A program made the translations under genes and the position numbers. 42,617 nucleotides of DNA from IMG/VR virus record IMGVR_UViG_3300035400_000018; one strand, given 5' to 3'. Position 1 is the first letter of the stretch; every line of letters starts with the position of its first letter. The DNA is from a virus. Below are positions 13,115 through 39,897 of this stretch, piece after piece. The notes beneath the pieces were generated by a model. The model was not told the origin of the DNA. It saw nothing but the letters and a program-made list of their open reading frames with translations, and did no database searches.

Positions 13115-13428
13115 AAACCTCCGTCCGCGAATCCAGCCTCATAGCCTACGACACACTCAAGACCGCCGACCTGGGCCGCCAGGAGCGCCAGGTGCTCGCC
13201 GGAGTGGCCCTACTGATCCGTACCGGCCAGCACACCGACGGATGGGTCAGCCGCCGTCAGATCGCGCAGCTCACCGGCCTGGAAACGTCTACCGTGGCGG
13301 CGCGCACCAACTCGCTGATTGCGGCCCGCCGGCTGGTGGAATCCGAGGAACTGCAGCCGTGCCCGGTGACGGGGCGGAACGTGCACATGGTCGGGCTGCC
13401 GGCACCGGCAGGCAAGGAGGCGGCATGA
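13111..13428 (+). CDS. Winged-helix (MarR-like) DNA-binding protein (105 aa)
   Basis: Sequence SRRQIAQLTGLETSTVAARTNSLIAARRLVE. ATG 13111 is coupled to the upstream small ORF. Confidence 0.5.
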   Translation: MKTSVRESSLIAYDTLKTADLGRQERQVLAGVALLIRTGQHTDGWVSRRQIAQLTGLETSTVAARTNSLIAARRLVESEELQPCPVTGRNVHMVGLPAPAGKEAA

Positions 13429-14054
13429 GAAAGTTTTGGACTGACGCCGAAGACCGCTGGCTGATCGACAACTACCCGGACACGCTGGCAGAGGACATAG
13501 CAAAGCATTTGGGTCGCACTGTCCGGTCCGTTTATGCCCGCGCGAACGGCATGGGTCTCAAGAAAAGCGCCGAGTTTCTATCCAGCGAGGCGGCGGGCCG
13601 CACCAATCTGCTGAAGGCCGGAGAAAAACACAGATTTCACTCGGGGCAAACCCCGTGGAACGCCGGCAAGAAGGGTTGGCAGGCCGGAGGCCGCGCCAAG
13701 GAAACCCAGTTCAAGAAGGGGCGGAGGCCGCACACCTGGAACCCGGTCGGCCATGAGCGCTTGACCAAGGATGGATACCTGCAGCGCAAGGTCACGGACA
13801 CCGGCTGCACGCCGCGCGACTACCGGATGGTCCACCACTTGGTGTGGGAGGAAGCCGGCGGAGAGATCCCACCCGGACACGTCCTTGTGTTCCGCAACGG
13901 TAACAAGCGGGACATCCGCCCGGAAAATCTGGAACTGATCACCCGGGCCGAGAACGCCCGCCGTAACTCCATCCATCGTTATCCGCCAGAGCTTCGCGCC
14001 GCCATGAGAGCAGCGGGCAAGCTGCGCCGGAAAATCCAGGAGGCTGAATCATGA
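13425..14054 (+). CDS. HNH endonuclease with an N-terminal Myb/SANT-like domain (209 aa)
   Basis: WTDAEDRWLIDNYPD..., then DGYLQRKV...MVHHLVWEEAGGEIPPGHVLVFRNGNKRDIRPENLELITRAENARRN. AAGGAGG lies upstream of ATG 13425. Confidence 0.8.
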   Translation: MRKFWTDAEDRWLIDNYPDTLAEDIAKHLGRTVRSVYARANGMGLKKSAEFLSSEAAGRTNLLKAGEKHRFHSGQTPWNAGKKGWQAGGRAKETQFKKGRRPHTWNPVGHERLTKDGYLQRKVTDTGCTPRDYRMVHHLVWEEAGGEIPPGHVLVFRNGNKRDIRPENLELITRAENARRNSIHRYPPELRAAMRAAGKLRRKIQEAES

Positions 14055-14293: not shown

Positions 14294-14529
14294 TCCCCAT
14301 GGTTTCGGCTCAATGCCGTCCGAATAAGCCGCCCCGAGCCAAGCCTGAGCCAAGGCCGGGCCGGGCGCTGACCCCATTCACCGACCCTCAAGCCGCCCTG
14401 GAAGAGGCCCAGTTCCAGGCCGAAATGACCGGCTGGCCCCAGGCCATCGTAAACACGCCCGAGGGCATGGCGGTTGTGGCAAGGCATCGGGCCCATGGAA
14501 TGGAGATTTTGGAGGTGGTGCATGGCTGA
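14290..14529 (+). CDS. Hypothetical protein (79 aa)
   Basis: Coupled ORF. No motif. Confidence 0.45.
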   Translation: MIPMVSAQCRPNKPPRAKPEPRPGRALTPFTDPQAALEEAQFQAEMTGWPQAIVNTPEGMAVVARHRAHGMEILEVVHG

Positions 14530-14941
14530 CACGATCACCCTGTTCGCCAAAGAGCAGCTAGGCGACCTCATGAGTGAGCTGCTGCGCCGTGATTTCCCGG
14601 TGCGGGTCAAGATCACCAAGGCGAGCCGCACGCTTTCGCAGAACGCGCTGTACTGGCAGTGGCTCACCGTTATGGCGGCCCATTTCACCGAGCGCGGCCA
14701 CCGGCTCACCAAGGACGATGCCCACGACCTGATGCGGCACAAGTTCCTGGGCCACGAAACCAAGACCGTGGGCAAGACCGAAATCACCAAGCTGCGCAGC
14801 ACCGCCGAGCTGGATAAGGGCGAAATGACCGACTACATGACGCAGATCGACAACTGGTGCGTTGACCACGGGTGCCTGCTGCCCAAGCCCGAGGACAGCG
14901 AATACCAGCAGATCATGCGGGAAATGGGGGAGGTGGCATGA
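14522..14941 (+). CDS. ninB: NinB/Orf-family recombination mediator (139 aa)
   Basis: Sequence KASRTLSQNALYWQWLTVMAAHF resembles the NinB signature (R-L-QN ... W). ATG 14522 was chosen over the upstream alternative start. Confidence 0.7.
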   Translation: MADTITLFAKEQLGDLMSELLRRDFPVRVKITKASRTLSQNALYWQWLTVMAAHFTERGHRLTKDDAHDLMRHKFLGHETKTVGKTEITKLRSTAELDKGEMTDYMTQIDNWCVDHGCLLPKPEDSEYQQIMREMGEVA

Positions 14942-16392
14942 CCGCCTACTACAACGAAATCGACCCGTTCGCCGCCCAGTGGCTGCGCGAGCTGATAGCG
15001 GCCGGCCTGATTGCGCCTGGCGACGTTGACGAAAGGAGCATCGAGGATGTTCGACCAGATGACCTTGTGGGATACACCCAGTGCCATTTCTTCGCCGGAA
15101 TCGGCGTGTGGAGTTACGCCCTTCGCCGAGCCGGATGGCCCGACGACGCGCCAGTCTGGACCGGTTCCTGCCCATGCCAGCCTTTCAGCTCGGCAGGCAA
15201 AAGAGGCGGGTTTGATGACGAGCGGCACCTATGGCCCGCCTTCCACTGGCTTATCCAGCAGTGCGCGCCTCCAGCTGTCCTTGGAGAACAGGTTGCGAGC
15301 AAACCTACAGGGCCGTGGTTCGACCTTGTACAAGCTGACGTGGAAGCCCTGGGTTACGCCTTCGGGTGTGTCCCGTTCCCGTCTGCGGGCGTCGGTGCCC
15401 CGCATATCCGAGACCGTGCGTATTGGGTGGCCAACGCCGGCGGCTTGGGACTACAAGAGCGAATCGGCGAGCGACGAATTCAACGAGAAGCGGTGGGCTC
15501 ATGCGAGGGGGAAGCCGCTGTCGGCGGTGGTCACGTTGGCGGGCTGGCCAACGCCAGGGGCCAACAACTACAAGGGGCAGCCGGAGACGGCGAGAGGCCT
15601 GGAAAATCTGGATGGAAAGGCGCTGCTAGCTGGCTGGGCAACACCCAGGGCGAACGATGCGGAGAAGCGCGGGCAATTGGCGCCGGACATACGGAACGGT
15701 CTGCCAATGCAGGCTCAGCAATTGGGGCCGCTCCGTCTGACGGCTTCTGGCGAGACGCTGACTGGCTCCTCTGCCGGGATGGAAAGCTCCGGCCAGTTGA
15801 ACCCGGCCCACAGCAGATGGTTGATGGGTCTGCCGACTGCGTGGGACGAGTGTGCGCCGAAGGAGTTACCAAAGCGGAGGAAGAAATAGATGGATGGTCG
15901 AAGCGACATTCTGTCGACGCCGGAGAAGCTTTGCGAAATCTGTGGGTCAAGCTTTCAGAGGAGGCGCTTGGCGAGCGGGCGCCTGGAGGACCGTGGGGCA
16001 TATTTGAGGCGCCGATTCTGCTCGCTTTTCTGCGCCAACTCTCGGAGCAAGGGTGGCGCTTCTCGGACGCGCTCACATGTTCGCGCTCGGACGCATCTAG
16101 GGCCATGTTGCGAGCACTGCGGTTCGACCGAGAAGCTGCATGTCCATCATGCGGACGAGAATTGGCGGAACAACGATCCGATGAACCTGCAAACCCTTTG
16201 CGAGAGCTGTCACAGATCCTGGCACGCAACGCAGAGAGCTCGTGGGGTGAAACCTGCTGGACGTATGCCGGCAAAGGGTTCCCTCTAGCCAAGAACGCTT
16301 CCGCCCGAGTGGGACGACTGCGCGGTTATGGCAATGCCATCAATGCCCAAGCGGCCACGGCGTTCATCCAAGCCGTGATGGAGGTGGCCTGA
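14938..16392 (+). CDS. DNA (cytosine-5)-methyltransferase, frame 1 (484 aa if read straight through)
   Basis: Motifs FFAGIG (I-like), PCQPFS (IV), GEQV (ENV-like, VI), APHIRDR (VIII) and GYGNAI (X-like) at the C-terminus. GGGGGAGG lies before ATG 14938. The middle (about 15430-15740) is low-complexity with poor third-position G+C, and the frame also runs through an HNH gene. Confidence 0.75.
15047..15889 (+). CDS. Overprinted frame-2 ORF (280 aa) with GW[PA]TP repeats and an LMGLP..W C-terminus
   Basis: AAGGAG (15033-15038) lies 8 nt before ATG 15047. Sequences [59 protein letters not shown]. Third-position G+C is higher than frame 1 in sampled windows. Confidence 0.55.
15830..15859 (+). repeat. 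Left copy of the imperfect 30-bp direct repeat flanking the HNH cassette
   Basis: CTGCCGACTGCGTGGGACGAGTGTGCGCCG matches 16298-16327 at 21/30 positions. The offset of 468 bp is a multiple of 3. Confidence 0.6.
15890..16288 (+). CDS. HNH endonuclease (132 aa), frame 2, nested inside the methyltransferase frame-1 ORF
   Basis: GGAGG (15876-15880) lies 9 nt before ATG 15890. Sequences CEICGS and [39 protein letters not shown]. Confidence 0.7.
   Translation: MDGRSDILSTPEKLCEICGSSFQRRRLASGRLEDRGAYLRRRFCSLFCANSRSKGGASRTRSHVRARTHLGPCCEHCGSTEKLHVHHADENWRNNDPMNLQTLCESCHRSWHATQRARGVKPAGRMPAKGSL
16298..16327 (+). repeat. Right copy of the imperfect 30-bp direct repeat flanking the HNH cassette
   Basis: CTTCCGCCCGAGTGGGACGACTGCGCGGTT encodes LPPEWDDCA in frame 2 and SARVGRLRG in frame 1. 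Confidence 0.6.
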
Positions 16393-16763
16393 TGCAAGGC
16401 GGCAAAGCACCCACGGCAGCCCAGCGCCGGTGGCATCAATGGCTCCGGGACCAGGGCTGCGCCTGCTGCGGCATGCCGGCGGAGATCCATCACTGCGTCG
16501 GGTCCACGGGCAAGCACAACAAGGTGTGGATAGGCCAAGATTTCTGCCTGCCCCTGTGCCCGCGCCACCACCGGCACGAGGCGTCGATCGACAAAAACAC
16601 CGCCCAGTTCGTCACCGAGTATTACGGCTCACCCCGGGACATCGGCCGGCGGGGCATGGAGAAGACCATTTTTGCCGGGCTGGTGGCGCACTACCGCCGC
16701 ATGAAGGGCGAGCTGCCGTGTTCGGCGGAGGTGCTGGCTGCGATTGAGGACTACCACCGTTAG
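16392..16763 (+). CDS. Cys/His-rich putative nuclease (123 aa), NinG/Ref-like
   Basis: Sequences CACCGMPAEIHHCVG and LPLCPRHHRHE. TGATG overlap with the methyltransferase stop. Family assignment is tentative. Confidence 0.45.
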   Translation: MQGGKAPTAAQRRWHQWLRDQGCACCGMPAEIHHCVGSTGKHNKVWIGQDFCLPLCPRHHRHEASIDKNTAQFVTEYYGSPRDIGRRGMEKTIFAGLVAHYRRMKGELPCSAEVLAAIEDYHR

Positions 16764-16774
16764 AGGAGACCGCC

Positions 16775-17026
16775 ATGATTGGCGTCATTAAGTGCGAAGA
16801 AAGTCTGGTTTTTGAGTTTCAGCCGCGATTCGGCGGGCCGTATTTCAAATGGCTTCAGATTCCGATTCCTAATGTTTTTCGTGGCTTGAGCGAGGGGGAG
16901 TACGGAGTTTCGTTCAGTCTCGGCAAAGGATGGAAATACTGGACGTTATGGGTTCATAAGGGCTCGGGCGTCGAAGTATGGGATCTCCGTAGGATCGCCA
17001 ACAGGGTCCGTCAGCTTTGGAGCTGA
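16775..17026 (+). CDS. Hypothetical protein (83 aa), AT-richer
   Basis: AGAGGAG lies before ATG 16775. No motif. Composition differs from the neighbours. Confidence 0.45.
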   Translation: MIGVIKCEESLVFEFQPRFGGPYFKWLQIPIPNVFRGLSEGEYGVSFSLGKGWKYWTLWVHKGSGVEVWDLRRIANRVRQLWS

Positions 17027-17031
17027 AACCC

Positions 17032-17412
17032 ATGCTGCCCAGCGAGAGCCAGGAACAGATCACCGTGGTGCGCTGGTTCGACCTGAGCCACCGAGACCTG
17101 AAAGGACGGCTGATAGCGGTGCCCAACGGCGCCCACCTGGCCGGCAGCGGTAAACAGCGGGCGGCGAAGATGGCGCGGATGAAGGCGGAGGGTCTGCGCC
17201 CGGGATTCCCCGACCTGTTCCTGCCGGTGCCGGCCCACGGCTTCCACGGGCTGGCTATCGAAATGAAGCGGCAGAAGGGCAGCACGACCAGTCGGGAGCA
17301 AATCGAATGGCTGGAATGGCTAGCCGAGCAGGGCTACATGACGGCGCTGTGCAAGGGCGCCCAGGCGGCCATGGACACGATCAATTCGTATTTGGGAGAG
17401 GCAAATGGCTAA
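17032..17412 (+). CDS. VRR-NUC domain nuclease (126 aa)
   Basis: Sequences SESQEQITVVRWF, NG...AAKMARMKAEGLRPGFPDLFL, GLAIEMKRQKG..SREQIEWLEWLAEQGY (PD-ExK-type core). GGAG lies 9 nt before ATG 17032. Confidence 0.85.
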   Translation: MLPSESQEQITVVRWFDLSHRDLKGRLIAVPNGAHLAGSGKQRAAKMARMKAEGLRPGFPDLFLPVPAHGFHGLAIEMKRQKGSTTSREQIEWLEWLAEQGYMTALCKGAQAAMDTINSYLGEANG

Positions 17413-34870: not shown

Positions 34871-37800
34871 GAATCGATAACAGCGCCTTCGCCGAAGTCA
34901 ACGACAGCCAGTGGCAGGCGCCCCAGTTCGTCGTGTCCATCGACTTCGGCGACGATGACCTGTTCTACCTGACCTCCCACCCTGTCACCGGCCTGGCCGG
35001 CGAGAACGTCATCGAGGGCGTTCTGGAGAGCATCTCAGGCACCTCCCAGAAGCTGAACCCGGACAAGGCCAACTCCGAGATCGGCAGCCTGAATTTTGAG
35101 GTGCTGGACGACGGCCTGACCGCGCTGCAGGCGGACCGGCTGAGCCAGGGCAAAGGCCTGCGGGGCAAGACCGTGCGGTTCTATGTCGGCGATGAGACCC
35201 TGCCGTGGTCCAGCTACATCCTCGCCACCACCCAGATCGTGGATGAGGCCGGCTATAAGGATCTGTCCTACAGCTTCAAGTGCGCCGACGTTCAGCGGAT
35301 GCTCCGGGAGGACATCTTCAAGCCGAAAGAAACGCGGCTGAACGGCGACCTGGGCGCCGAGGATGACGAAATACAGGTCCTGAGCACCAACGGCTTTGAG
35401 CCCTATCAGTTCCCGGACATTCAGGGTGCGGTGGTGGCGGGTGAGAAGGTCGGGCTTCTGCGCATCGAGGGCGATGACGACGATTTCGAGATTGCCTCCT
35501 TCAGCAGCAAGGAGCCCGGCAAGTTCACGGGCGTGAAGCGCGGGTTGCTTGGCACTACCGCCCTGTCCCTGGAGCGCGGGCAGGGGGATCAGGAGTCCGG
35601 CCCCAAAATTACCGAGTTCGTGTTCCTGGAAATGCCGGGGCCGATGCTGGCCTATGCCGTCCTCACGGGCGCTATCTACGGGTATCCGGGCGAATACCTG
35701 CCGGATCACTGGCACCTGGGCGTGCCCGCCGAGTTCATCCGAACCAGCGATTTCGAGAACATCGGTGAGGATCTGTGGGTTCCTGCTGATCCGAACCAGG
35801 GCGTGAAAATCCGACTCGCCGGCCTGGAGGAAGAGGACGGCAAGAAGTTCCTGGAGGAGGAAGTGTTCGCGCTGATGGGCTGCTATCCGCCCATCTACTC
35901 CGACGGCCAGCTCGGGATGCGCCGGATGACCGGCGTCCACTCCACCGGCGGTTACGTCCGCCGGCTCGACGCCGACAACGTCGTGGACTACGGCGACCTC
36001 ACCCACGACATGGGCGCGGTGATCAATGAGATTTTCGTGTCCTGGAACTGGGACATTTTCGAGGAGGAATTCACCCGGCTCCACTACCTGCCGGACCTGG
36101 AATCCATCGAGATTCACGGCAAGGCTGAGCAGAAAGACCTTGAGTTCCGGGGCCTGTTCAGCGGGTGGCACAGCACCCAGACCATCGATCGGTTGGTTGC
36201 GAGTCTGCGCGACCGGTATGCGGGGCCGCCGCTGCTGCTGAATCTGACGCTGACCCCTGACCAAAACGACCTGGAGGTCGGCGACATTGTGCGGGTGGAC
36301 CTCTTCGAGGTGCAGGATTACACCGGCACCACGGACGATGGCCACCTGAACCGCAATTTCGAGATCCAGCAGATCAGCACGGATTGGCGTACCGGCAAGG
36401 TGAAGGTCAAGCTGTTCGGGTCCAGCCAGAGGGCCGGCGCCCTGCCTCCGCAGGAAACCGGCACCGCGATCCCCAATAGCTGGTACGAGCGCGGCACCGA
36501 GATCAGCCCCGAGAACTTCCCGGGCGTGGTGAGTGTGACCGGCGGCGTAACCCGCGTGGATGGGGTGCTGGACTTGGCCGGCGGCGAATCGCTGGACGAT
36601 GAGGCGACCTATTTCTGGTGTGCCGGCGACCTGAACTGCGACGACGAAGCCGAAATCCGCATTTCCGACAACGTGGCGCTGCTGGTGCGCGGCTTCCTCA
36701 CGCTCAACAACGCCAAGATCAACGGCAAGGGGCGCGGCTTTCCGGGTGGGACCGGCACCACGAGCATGGTCTCCAGCGGCGGCTATTTCTTCAACTACGG
36801 CAGCCGGTGGGATGCGGTCAACAAGGGCACGCCGGGCTTCCTCGACATCCAATCAACCCCCCAGGGTGGCCGTGGGTACCAGTATCGCGGCTTCAACGAG
36901 CCGATCATGCGCGACGTGGACGGCGTTAAGACCATGCGCAACATGGGCGCGGTCATCGGCGGCCGGGTCCAGCCTGGGCAGACCCCGCCGCCCATCTATG
37001 AGCAGGACGCCGATGGGGTGACTCTGTTCCCCGTCGATCTGCGCGGTTCCAGCGGCAGCGGCGGCGGCTCCACGCTCGCGGAATGGGATGGCGGCGGCAT
37101 CGAATACAAAAAGCCGGGCGGCGATGGCGGTGCCGGCGGCGCGGGCTTGGTGATTGTCGCACGCGGCATGAGCATCGGCGCCAACGGTTACATCGACGTG
37201 AGCGGCGCTGCTGGCAGCATCCCGCCGGGCACCTACTACAGCCCCACAACCTCGCCCCAGTTGCGGATTTGGGCGGGTTCCGGCGGCCCCGGCGGCCCCG
37301 GAGCCTGTTACATCCTGATCGACGGCAACGCCAACGCGCCGAACATCAACGAGCGCACCGCAAAGGCGAACGGCGGGGATTTGGTCTGGGCGGCGCGGCG
37401 GCTGAAGCCCTACGTCGTCTATCACTCCAGCGTCGCGACCTTCTCCAGTGACAAAGGCCCGGCGCCGCAGCAGGGCACGGCAACCACCTCGCCGGCCCCC
37501 GGCGCCATGGTGTGGGAGTCCGCGTTTTCGGTGCAGCGCCTCACGAGCTACATCGAGCCGGTGGAGGATGAGCCGGTGGTGACCCTGAACCCGCCGGTTG
37601 TGACCCTGGCCGAGGCCACTAACACCCCGCGCAGCGCCAACGCGAACCTGTCCACCATTGAGGTGGGCGTCCAGCCGCCGAGTGTGAGCAACTACGCCTA
37701 CGGCCTGGTGGAGTACCGCGAGAAGGGGCAGGCGGGCTGGTTTGAGGTCGGCCCGGCCTCGCCCGAAGCCACGTTCGTGGTGCCGAGCGACGGCCGAACC

Positions 37801-39897
37801 TATGAGGTCCAGGTCCGGGGCGTCTCCCTGCGCGGCAAGGTGAACCAGGACGGCACCGTGGCGGAGATCGCCACCACCTATGTGCGCTCGCCCGGCGACG
37901 TGAGCGAGGAGCCGGAGGACGACCCGAACGAGGTGGTTCCGGCCCCGCCGGTAAACGGCCTGGAGCTGTTCGAGCAGGGCAACGACACCGTGTTCGGTGG
38001 CCGCGACGCCAAGTTCGTCTGGCGCAAGACCAGCGTCACCGAATGGTTCGAGATGGGCCAGGAGGGCGAGCAGGGCGCCGGTAGTGGCGGTCTGGACCTG
38101 TACTTCCGGGATTATCAGGTCGAGGTGTGGGCGGATGTGGACGGCACCCTGTCCCTGGTGCGCACCGAATGGGTGAATGACCCCCAGTTCGTCTACACCT
38201 ACGAGAAGAACGCCGAGGACCACGCTCGCGAGACCGCCTCATCAGGCGCGTGGCGTGCGTTCGAGGCTCGGGTGTACTGCCGGGGCCGTCAGAACCAGAT
38301 CAGCGCCCAGGCGGCGCGGCTCAGCGTGGAGAACGTGGCACCGCCCCTGCCGGAGGCTCTGACCATTTCCGCTGGCTTCCGCAGCGCCCAGATTGATTTC
38401 GAGCCCCCGGAGGACCTGGATTACCGCGATTCCCGGGTGTGGATGAGCCAGACAACCGGATTCACCCCCGGCCCCGAGAATCTGGTGGCCCAGCAGTACG
38501 GCGGGCCGGTGGTGCTTTCCGGCCTCACCGACAACAGCACCTACTACCTGCGGTTTGCCACCTACGACGCCTTTGGCCAGGGCACGATCAGCAGCCAGTT
38601 CACGGTCACCACGCCGTCGCTGTCCGCTGGTGAGGTGGAGGGCCTGAGCCCCTGGGCCACGGTCATCGACGCCGACCGGGCGTTCATCGACGCCAATCTG
38701 GCCAATGACGCGATCGACAGCACCAAGATCGTCAAGCTCACCGCCTCCAAGATCGTCACCGGCACCCTGGCCGCCACCGAGAAAATCAGCGTGGAGGGGC
38801 AGGTGGAAAGCGTGGTGGGCGATGCGGTGGCGACGCTGGGGCCGAAAACCATCGGGAACCGCACGGGACTGATCAGCTACGAGTATAGCGGTGTGCCGCT
38901 GTTCTCGGTTTTCTCAGACGGCTCAGTGGAGATGATCGGCTCGCTGACGATCCCTGGGGCCGGTGGCGCCACGGCCAACCTTTCTGGCGATCCGGTTGCG
39001 GGCCTGAATGTGACACCGACCCATTTGGGGTATTACGACGGCACCCAGTGGACAGCCGTGATTGACGATAACGGCGATTTCTATTTCGGAGACGAAGAAG
39101 AGCAGTTTTTCAAAAAAGAGGGTGGAGAGCTCTCTATAGGGCGGGATACCGTCCTTACGGGGGTGGATACTTTTAACGGGAAGAAATTGGCGGTCCATTA
39201 TTATTTCAACTCGGTTTACATTCCTCCAAGTCGCTATAGCGTGACAGGCACGGGGGTTATTGAGTGGGCGCCGAGAGGCCTACTTTTAGAGGCCGATGAC
39301 TCGCCGGGTACGTTTGACCTCGATTTCGCGACACCAGACATTGAGACCCTAGGGAAAAATCTATTCGACATTAAAAAGGGACGAATCAAAGTTGGCATTG
39401 GGTACGGGTCAACGATAAGCCCGGCGTCCTATAACGCCTCCTCAACGCACACAAATACGACAAAAATATCGTTCTTTGGCGGTGAGTCAGGCGTAATCAG
39501 AATAACCATTCAGGACGTCTGGACATTCCTGGATGAAGATCAGTTCCGCATCCGGGTTCAGAGGGATAGAACGGTAACGGCTGTGTGTTCAGAAAATCTG
39601 AGTGATGTCCGGACTCTCGAGACGGACACCGAGATATTTAGTTCTACGGTCCTAAAAGTATACACCCTGACTCCAGTCCGAATAGAGCTTGCGGTAGACC
39701 TTGAGGTCACAGGCACGATCAGGCTTACCAGTGATTCCGGATGGGATGAGACATTCAGTGTCCCCTTCCAGAGCTTTCCTTTCGATCAGTCCAGCAACGC
39801 CAGCGACCTCTACGTCGGAGGGGAAATAACCGGTAATCAGACCCAGGGCCCGAAGTTTGGGGCGCAGATTAACGACCTGTTTTTCATCGAGGATTAA
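34867..39897 (+). CDS. Large tail tip / host-specificity protein (1676 aa)
   Basis: Size and position. Gly-rich central segment (GSSGSGGGST...GGDGGAGGAG), repeated beta-rich domains, and an AT-richer C-terminal 280 aa. Confidence 0.85.
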   Translation: MRIDNSAFAEVNDSQWQAPQFVVSIDFGDDDLFYLTSHPVTGLAGENVIEGVLESISGTSQKLNPDKANSEIGSLNFEVLDDGLTALQADRLSQGKGLRGKTVRFYVGDETLPWSSYILATTQIVDEAGYKDLSYSFKCADVQRMLREDIFKPKETRLNGDLGAEDDEIQVLSTNGFEPYQFPDIQGAVVAGEKVGLLRIEGDDDDFEIASFSSKEPGKFTGVKRGLLGTTALSLERGQGDQESGPKITEFVFLEMPGPMLAYAVLTGAIYGYPGEYLPDHWHLGVPAEFIRTSDFENIGEDLWVPADPNQGVKIRLAGLEEEDGKKFLEEEVFALMGCYPPIYSDGQLGMRRMTGVHSTGGYVRRLDADNVVDYGDLTHDMGAVINEIFVSWNWDIFEEEFTRLHYLPDLESIEIHGKAEQKDLEFRGLFSGWHSTQTIDRLVASLRDRYAGPPLLLNLTLTPDQNDLEVGDIVRVDLFEVQDYTGTTDDGHLNRNFEIQQISTDWRTGKVKVKLFGSSQRAGALPPQETGTAIPNSWYERGTEISPENFPGVVSVTGGVTRVDGVLDLAGGESLDDEATYFWCAGDLNCDDEAEIRISDNVALLVRGFLTLNNAKINGKGRGFPGGTGTTSMVSSGGYFFNYGSRWDAVNKGTPGFLDIQSTPQGGRGYQYRGFNEPIMRDVDGVKTMRNMGAVIGGRVQPGQTPPPIYEQDADGVTLFPVDLRGSSGSGGGSTLAEWDGGGIEYKKPGGDGGAGGAGLVIVARGMSIGANGYIDVSGAAGSIPPGTYYSPTTSPQLRIWAGSGGPGGPGACYILIDGNANAPNINERTAKANGGDLVWAARRLKPYVVYHSSVATFSSDKGPAPQQGTATTSPAPGAMVWESAFSVQRLTSYIEPVEDEPVVTLNPPVVTLAEATNTPRSANANLSTIEVGVQPPSVSNYAYGLVEYREKGQAGWFEVGPASPEATFVVPSDGRTYEVQVRGVSLRGKVNQDGTVAEIATTYVRSPGDVSEEPEDDPNEVVPAPPVNGLELFEQGNDTVFGGRDAKFVWRKTSVTEWFEMGQEGEQGAGSGGLDLYFRDYQVEVWADVDGTLSLVRTEWVNDPQFVYTYEKNAEDHARETASSGAWRAFEARVYCRGRQNQISAQAARLSVENVAPPLPEALTISAGFRSAQIDFEPPEDLDYRDSRVWMSQTTGFTPGPENLVAQQYGGPVVLSGLTDNSTYYLRFATYDAFGQGTISSQFTVTTPSLSAGEVEGLSPWATVIDADRAFIDANLANDAIDSTKIVKLTASKIVTGTLAATEKISVEGQVESVVGDAVATLGPKTIGNRTGLISYEYSGVPLFSVFSDGSVEMIGSLTIPGAGGATANLSGDPVAGLNVTPTHLGYYDGTQWTAVIDDNGDFYFGDEEEQFFKKEGGELSIGRDTVLTGVDTFNGKKLAVHYYFNSVYIPPSRYSVTGTGVIEWAPRGLLLEADDSPGTFDLDFATPDIETLGKNLFDIKKGRIKVGIGYGSTISPASYNASSTHTNTTKISFFGGESGVIRITIQDVWTFLDEDQFRIRVQRDRTVTAVCSENLSDVRTLETDTEIFSSTVLKVYTLTPVRIELAVDLEVTGTIRLTSDSGWDETFSVPFQSFPFDQSSNASDLYVGGEITGNQTQGPKFGAQINDLFFIED

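Follow-up and report, generated by a model that had tools for sequence, protein, structure and literature searches.

A probable mobile HNH cassette in a doubly coding cytosine methyltransferase locus of a phage

Related systems and the layout of the locus

The ShiLan domain is an HNH endonuclease gene that lies out of frame within mycobacteriophage methylases, in which the host frame remains open and the distribution of the element is disjunct (PMC11855218, 2025). Its product is 195 aa in length and has a pair of zinc fingers; the beginning of the insert is similar to what follows the insertion site, a helical hairpin has been described, and, no ribosome-binding site being found, leaderless initiation was proposed (PMC11855218). 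M.EcoHK31I is a heterodimeric C5 methyltransferase in which the beta chain, carrying motif IX, is encoded wholly in another frame of the gene for the alpha chain, which carries motifs I–VIII and X (PMC2836561). In the present study, a locus from IMG/VR virus record IMGVR_UViG_3300035400_000018 was analysed, a stretch of 42,617 nucleotides given as one strand, 5′ to 3′, and referred to here in its entirety as the window. This locus contains a C5 cytosine methyltransferase open reading frame (ORF), alpha, within which a second ORF, beta, and a predicted HNH endonuclease gene lie in tandem in another frame. It is probable that a mobile HNH cassette has entered an alpha/beta methylase locus in such a way that both methylase genes were rescued and alpha is read through the HNH gene.

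Frame 1 is open as one ORF across window 14872–16392, encoding 484 aa when counted from ATG 14938 (14938..16392, + strand). The alpha product matches Pfam PF00145 and PHROG phrog_363, the profile length of which, 327 positions, equals 484 aa minus the insert. Against PDB sequences it matches M.HhaI residues 73–178, and Foldseek aligned its AlphaFold2 (AF2) model to M.HhaI and M.HaeIII across ~170 residues. The N-terminal motifs I–VIII are followed by a linker, by the read-through of the HNH cassette (residues ~291–453) and by motif X (GYGNAI) with the C-terminal helices; motifs I, IV, VI and VIII are upstream of the cassette and GNAI is at the end of frame 1, with GYGNAI encoded only 3′ of the second of two repeat copies described below. 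In the model, the N-domain and the C-terminal helices have a predicted local distance difference test score (pLDDT) >90. The middle of alpha (residues 186–268), which overlaps the W-P-T-P repeats of beta, is unconserved and modelled as disordered (pLDDT <50).

Beta is in frame 2, +1 relative to alpha, and encodes 280 aa from ATG 15047 (15047..15889, + strand; the frame is open from TTG 15011), with three W-x-T-P repeats (GWPTP/GWATP) and a motif-IX-like C-terminus. It matches PHROG phrog_1008 (E=1.4e-34), a different family from that of alpha; a search of the beta sequence against Pfam, NCBIfam and PDB gave no match. The predicted HNH gene, 132 aa, follows in the same frame (15890..16288, + strand). 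Its ATG is immediately 3′ of the beta stop codon TAG 15887–15889 (TAGATG), and a Shine-Dalgarno-like GGAGG (15876..15880, + strand) is 9 nt upstream of the start codon. The ORF matches the Pfam HNH family PF01844 (E=1.3e-5) and several PHROG HNH families, and its product has an N-terminal zinc-ribbon-like CxxC...CSxxC followed by the HNH core CxxC...HHxDxxxxNNxxxNLQTLCxxCH, with the invariant columns C74, C77, H86, H87, N95, N99, C104, C107, H108 and H112.

As with ShiLan, the insertion is inside a phage methylase ORF, leaves the host frame without a stop and is missing from near relatives; the HNH ORF occupies another frame, and its occurrence among closely related methylases is disjunct. Neither shows intron or intein features, the start of the insert resembles the sequence just past the insertion site, and the host-frame read-through is predicted as a helical hairpin or loop. 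A tblastn search of 50,697 phage records with the window HNH protein matched no Mycobacterium phage, and the likeness is therefore one of kind, not of lineage. The window HNH protein differs in having 132 aa and one N-terminal zinc-ribbon-like part, and its hosts are Proteobacteria. In further contrast to ShiLan, the target is doubly coding and two genes are rescued via a pair of copies that differ in their recoding, beta and the HNH gene follow one another in a single frame of alpha, a Shine-Dalgarno-like site and the abutting beta stop offer a route to translation, and selection for the open host frame is quantified here across 90 homologues. An HNH gene hidden in a methylase, a phenomenon described for a few mycobacteriophages, is here extended to many prophages of Proteobacteria, among them entries annotated in Pseudomonas aeruginosa and Burkholderia multivorans; the statistical evidence for maintenance of the open host frame is strong, and stop–start coupling to beta is the suggested mode of translation of the hidden gene.

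The resemblance to M.EcoHK31I is drawn from gene arrangement and motifs, not from sequence homology: an alpha ORF with motifs I–VIII and X contains a nested ORF in another frame with a motif-IX-like sequence. The beta ORF of the window is longer, at ~280 aa against 176, and has repeated W-P-T-P elements, and M.EcoHK31I is without an HNH insertion.

Endonuclease genes in important phage genes are also represented by mobE, which reportedly splits nrdA in Aeromonas phage Aeh1, and by mobA, which T4 gene 60 is said to carry together with a 50-nt bypass cassette. In these cases, as in the window, a free-standing HNH-type endonuclease gene is found in an important phage gene, the function of which is rescued by an unusual arrangement borne by the element; the host gene in the window, however, is neither split nor bypassed, and ribosomes would read it across the endonuclease gene in another frame. 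Rz and Rz1 of lambda are an example of nested overlap between phage genes, where one gene is likewise wholly embedded in the +1 frame of another. What differs in the window is that the +1 frame of one host ORF holds two embedded genes, beta followed by HNH, and that one of them is probably mobile.

Empty and filled alleles of the locus

The cassette is marked by two 30-mers, at 15830–15859 and 16298–16327, which match at 21 of 30 positions with an offset of 468; in a shuffle test of the downstream region, 21 matches were reached in 1 of 200 shuffles. A first-pass annotation, made by a model from the letters of the window, had already described these repeats, the 132-codon HNH ORF with its GGAGG and a frame 1 open as far as GYGNAI beyond the second copy, all of which stand. 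It had further predicted that removal of the segment would leave both frames intact, and had suggested a search for empty-site alleles and alignment of their junctions. The predicted product exists as protein P0147, which has 328 aa (484 minus 156) and is 95 % identical to the window alpha. It is encoded on a metagenome contig, L359, with the same NinB–methylase–nuclease order as the window, 95.3 % identity to window 14511–15856, 90.2 % identity to 16296–16700, and exactly 468 bp missing. A single-copy stretch of this contig (bases 3891–3919) aligns to both repeat copies of the window. A second pair of alleles was found within one metagenome, L126 with the HNH gene and L310 without it; their flanks are 93–94 % identical and the net insert is ~470 nt. 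The empty alleles L359 and L310 are thus without 468–471 nt of insert.

Alignment of the junctions shows that identity to the empty allele ends at window 15807 and restarts at ~16297. Compared with L359, ~489 nt of cassette-specific DNA (15808..16296, + strand) stand where the empty allele has 21 nt, which makes the filled allele 468 nt longer, and the L126/L310 pair shows the same pattern. The empty-site equivalent of the window is obtained when 15808–16296 is exchanged for ACATTCCCGCTGGTTGATGGC. A cassette at 15830–16297 had been proposed at first pass; its net length of 468 bp is upheld, and its left boundary is moved, as cassette-specific DNA begins ~22 nt further upstream, at ~15808, and ends at ~16296.

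The upstream part of the cassette (15808..15889, + strand), which holds the first 30-mer, is a recoded copy of the dual-coding target that preserves beta as far as its C-terminus and the stop codon TAG; the last ~27 codons of beta, from ~15808, are therefore cassette-borne. This copy is synonymous for beta, with AGA TGG TTG ATG GGT CTG against CGC TGG CTC ATG GGG CTC in the empty allele, and retains the frame-2 peptide RWLMGLP..WDECAP..KK and its stop, whereas the alpha-frame reading is degraded, with FPLxxG wrecked. The downstream copy (16277..16327, + strand), which holds the second 30-mer, does the reverse, retaining alpha FPLAxxAxxRVGRLR. Its 5′ half is recoded, which destroys the beta WLMG, and its 3′ half, from ~16297, is resident sequence. 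Beyond the HNH stop codon, comparison with L359 identifies a vestigial beta-frame tail (16289..16378, + strand), the former C-terminus of beta, severed by that stop; in relatives this tail is fused to the end of the HNH ORF, and many HNH proteins end in ...LPPEWDxCAPT. The original nucleotide sequence is preserved in neither copy, and a filled allele would therefore no longer carry the presumed cleavage site.

The recoding AGATGGTTGATGGGTCTGCC...TGGGACGAGTGTGCGCC (AGATGGTTGATGGGTCTGCC...WDECAP) is common to the window and the unrelated HNH-bearing allele L126, while each downstream copy matches its own empty allele. Since in the window and L126 it is the two upstream copies that are alike, and neither is like the empty allele of its own pair, this copy moves as part of the cassette. 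An insertion accompanied by a diverged copy of its target, as first suggested, is therefore retained as an explanation; a local duplication is not, because the upstream copy was brought in by the cassette.

It is proposed that a free-standing HNH cassette replaced 21 nt of the dual-coding stretch. Such a cassette would have carried, in order, a beta-synonymous recoded copy of the displaced sequence with the rest of the beta C-terminus and a stop codon, the HNH gene with its ATG abutting that stop, and an alpha-synonymous recoded copy rejoining the resident motif X. Beta would then terminate ahead of the HNH gene, which would probably be translated by termination–reinitiation, aided by the GGAGG. 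Alpha would be translated through the HNH gene in the −1 frame, so that the CRDGKxRPVEPG hairpin and the motif-X helix are separated by ~160 additional residues, an insert that the enzyme would have to tolerate. If the HNH gene encodes a homing endonuclease, as seems likely, spread would probably occur through the cutting of empty alleles in co-resident phages or prophages, with the cassette copied in during repair. On this reading a mobile endonuclease gene has entered doubly coding DNA with neither protein destroyed, the overlap being in effect pulled apart at that point, and the arrangement of the cassette provides independent evidence that both overlapping methylase frames are under selection.

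Coding in the alpha and beta frames

The exact window HNH protein has no record in the contig index, and single-protein pattern scans with it found nothing in genome or viral contigs, an alignment-based query being required. There are 26 database homologues of the HNH protein, at 48–79 % identity, and seven of seven genomic contexts fetched for four of these (four distinct sequences) show the same architecture. Further loci were identified by alignment-based search of metagenomes, genomes and viral contigs, the genomes including those of Ralstonia syzygii, Stenotrophomonas maltophilia, Erythrobacter and Ideonella.

For the open-frame count, 90 distinct full-length HNH homologues (26–79 % identity, GC 34–65 %) were collected by HNH similarity. 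In 82 of these the −1 (alpha) frame is free of stops across the HNH gene, compared with ~1.1 expected from synonymous-codon shuffles within each gene. The frame was open in none of 1000 synonymous shuffles of the window HNH gene, with a mean of 6.6 stops. The open alpha frame links PCQxFS upstream to GNA[IV] downstream, and the open sequences include genes of 34–45 % GC. The third frame contains stops in all of the open-alpha homologues except one. The eight exceptions have 1–16 stops, and none was seen to lie within an open frame that connects methylase motifs, their context not being examined further. These counts indicate selection against stops in the alpha frame across the HNH gene.

It is scarcely credible, on these numbers, that the insertion simply killed the methylase, with frame 1 open by chance in GC-rich DNA and the similarity of the 30-mers coincidental. 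Long spurious ORFs do occur in GC-rich genomes, and the 21/30 match by itself is modestly significant (p ~0.005). However, synonymous shuffling always closes frame 1 of the window HNH gene, the frame is open in homologues down to 34 % GC, the two 30-mers correspond to a single stretch in the empty alleles, and the downstream motif X and C-terminal helices are conserved and confidently modelled.

HNH genes are often carried in phage group I introns, and in the window the insert is in a conserved part of a conserved gene and has ends that resemble each other, both of which would suit a group I or II intron spliced from the transcript, or an intein spliced from the protein, to give a mature methylase without the insert. 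This is nevertheless very improbable. There is no Rfam match at E<=1 in 14800–16900 on both strands, the RNA fold of the region is no more stable than that of shuffled sequence (z=−0.84), and only ~90 nt of the cassette are outside the HNH ORF. An intron would make an open host frame unnecessary, yet that frame is open in nearly all homologues. It is no intein either, since the HNH reading frame differs from that of alpha and ends at a stop codon of its own. The in-frame cassette and the reading of the methylase through the HNH gene in another frame, both put forward at first pass, are in agreement with these results.

The alpha-frame peptide encoded across the HNH gene is itself hardly conserved. 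Distant pairs have 22.9 % identity against 21.2 ± 0.14 % (an excess of 1.7 percentage points) under a null model in which the HNH protein, the codon usage and the absence of stops are all held. Because this is barely above the null, the main constraint on the read-through is likely to be that it stays open.

The other host frame, beta, is widely represented. It was matched by tblastn in 226 phage records, full length in 184, from hosts including E. coli, Salmonella, Klebsiella, Vibrio and Rhodobacter, as well as in a cyanophage, and by >7900 database proteins. Both the alpha and beta frames are open in phages BcepC6B, PMG1, vB_PL1, K1H, N15 and epsilon15; the annotation of K1H lists both ORFs alike, and the overlap is maintained in E. 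coli, Salmonella and Burkholderia phages. All 162 of the HNH-free relatives examined have the nested arrangement with both frames open. The likely ribosome-binding site of beta, read from the sequence, is AAAGGAG at 15032–15038, which with the start codon ATG 15047 (15032..15049, + strand) is inside the conserved DERSIEDV codons of alpha. Among 146 relatives, GGAG is present at this position in ~107, and a beta-frame ATG is at +19, +1 or +31 in nearly all. This evidence indicates that alpha and beta are both real genes, and the entry of the cassette into a doubly coding region, also suggested by the first-pass annotation, is supported by the full-length beta relatives.

The host locus would accordingly be a two-polypeptide C5 DNA methyltransferase of the M.EcoHK31I type, in which alpha and beta would function as a heterodimer and the W-P-T-P elements of beta probably belong to the target-recognition region. 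In an hhalign comparison of the beta profile with M.HhaI, the sole match is of residues 250–268 on motif IX (KLHPRECARVMGYPDSYKV), and is weak (E=0.56). The last ~20 codons of beta overlap the alpha FPLxxGxxxRVGRLRxYGNA, and this stretch is consequently unusually conserved at the DNA level.

A product switching frame from alpha to beta and back to alpha by frameshifting was rejected, since the alpha RVGRLRxYGNA directly overlaps the beta EWDDCAP, beta has its own Shine-Dalgarno sequence and ATG, and there is precedent for two polypeptides.

In Pseudomonas phage PMG1 (L002, 1537–2405), the alpha frame is apparently interrupted, with just a 164-aa C-terminal ORF listed; the beta frame is intact (281 aa) and is annotated as ‘DNA methyltransferase, Mte8-like’.

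Translation, probable mobility and other occupants of the site

The start of the HNH gene is 0–12 nt 3′ of the beta stop codon in 60 of 78 related loci, and in 32 of those 60 the two abut exactly (TAAATG, TAGATG or TGAATG), as does the TAGATG of the window. Of the 78, 44 have a Shine-Dalgarno-like motif preceding the HNH start. This stop–start adjacency suggests that the HNH gene is translated by termination–reinitiation.

The distribution of the HNH gene is patchy. On a tree of the alpha N-domain, constructed by the unweighted pair group method with arithmetic mean from 181 sequences with 28 HNH-bearing tips, the presence of the gene requires at least 18 state changes for the 28 tips, against 26 under random placement. 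The nearest relative is an empty allele for 22 of the 28 HNH-bearing alleles, HNH similarity correlates weakly with alpha N-domain similarity (Spearman 0.36), and the gene is present in 2 of 160 loci fetched by similarity to the window alpha. The distance from the beta WLMGxP to the alpha GNA falls into three classes, of 15 codons (113 loci, empty), 31–38 codons (15 loci) and 155–240 codons (HNH-bearing). In the C-terminal ~220 nt of the methylase of L225 and L347, two alleles of the middle class, there is a cassette-type LPVVWDECAP and a second RVGRLR copy with ~22 extra codons and no HNH gene; in L225 the cassette-type upstream copy is accompanied by an early beta stop. From their sequences, these look like deletion scars of the cassette. 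The same site is occupied in L108 and L158 by a different HNH gene, related to P0026, which encodes the core first and then a CxxC...CxxH zinc ribbon. The layout is that of the window, with a beta stop, an ATG and an open alpha frame; in L108 the site is after WLMGLPPAWDLCAP in the +1 frame, and the downstream copy is still intact in both frames. The element is old and widespread, and not a one-off event.

Several observations weigh against a selfish cassette read through by alpha merely as a spacer. The AF2 model of the alpha-frame insert has four confident helices (pLDDT 83–95) and a disordered loop at 382–416, which is odd for a pure spacer. The assignment of motif IX to beta depends on the weak alignment given above, and the structure model of beta is poor (pLDDT 61, predicted template modelling score 0.30). 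Beta and HNH are fused as a single ORF, with no stop between them, in L093 1691–3016, a metagenome-assembled genome (MAG) of Erythrobacter, and L094 2–703, a MAG of Roseicyclus. In addition, the HNH ORF is intact in 81 of the 82 open-alpha homologues, the exception being L143, and is tightly coupled to beta, as would also fit a useful, retained gene; it should be borne in mind that decayed copies are under-sampled, because the sample was gathered by HNH similarity.

These points bear on whether the HNH protein could instead be a domesticated working partner of the methylase, for example a nuclease that uses beta for DNA recognition in a restriction-modification-like or phage-exclusion unit. 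The intactness of the HNH ORF, maintained across 26–79 % identity, speaks for this, as do the coupling of its start to the beta stop at most loci, the two beta–HNH fusions and the beta-like tail ...LPPEWDxCAPT kept by many HNH proteins. It is considered unlikely, however, given that there are empty alleles near-isogenic to filled ones, in one case from the same metagenome, that the distribution is patchy with a history largely independent of the host gene, that the element is so rare among the close methylase relatives, and that the scar-like alleles indicate loss; the beta-like tail is explained as a leftover of the displaced beta C-terminus. A mobile cassette remains the preferred explanation.

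A further idea, based on the hints of translational coupling, the two fusions and the beta-like tail, is that the HNH protein uses the nested beta, as a DNA-recognition module, to find its target, and that the alpha read-through helices are a functional domain, making the stretch truly dual-coding. This is a long shot, but if true, one overlapping locus would provide a nuclease and the catalytic subunit of a methylase, together with a specificity subunit that both share.

The high-pLDDT helices of the read-through are at alpha residues 301–380 and 420–447 (nt ~15838–16078 and 16195–16278); they may be genuinely folded, or may arise artefactually from an alignment on which the other frame has left its mark.

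In L143 (1929–2267) there is an internal stop in the HNH frame and the alpha frame is open, which may be a decaying endonuclease gene within a maintained methylase. The enterobacterial alleles epsilon15 (L005, 2050–2288), L340, L224, L352, L348, L358 and L240 have a 16-codon internal duplication at the same site, with alpha reading AARLGRV-EPGVARV-ASSNRVGRLKGYGNAI and beta reading AWDES-SPGWQEW-QAATASA. This duplication partly uncouples the beta C-terminus from the alpha motif X, with no HNH gene, and could be the remnant of a lost cassette or an independent solution.

Current annotation pipelines record the whole read-through ORF, of 417–600 aa, as ‘DNA cytosine methyltransferase’ and overlook both beta and HNH; this is the plain label given by NCBI to long ORFs of this kind in species that include Pseudomonas aeruginosa and Burkholderia multivorans. 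In Staphylococcus phage CUB-EPI_14, a Gram-positive phage, a related HNH at 37800–38147 (H95) is under a ‘DNA-cytosine methyltransferase’ coding sequence. In the Komagataeibacter phages phiKX1 and phiKX2 (H91, H92; L360), a related HNH is found among ‘hypothetical proteins’, the methylase and the HNH gene both being unannotated. Among the genomes of isolates, HNH genes hidden in this way may be frequent.

When 20 kb of the window were compared with phage records at near-identity, no closely related phage was found. The methylase is in a nuclease-dense region of the window. A second HNH gene, free-standing and unrelated, is at 13425–14051 (+ strand), ~0.5 kb upstream of NinB (Pfam HNH_3, E=2e-17), and further nucleases are encoded at 16392–16763 (DUF968/RecA-dependent nuclease) and 17017–17409 (VRR-NUC). 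Outside the methylase, the window and L359 prophages are mosaic: at 1639–2574, L359 has a PAPS-reductase-like gene between a small upstream ORF and NinB that is absent at the corresponding position, ~14519, of the window.

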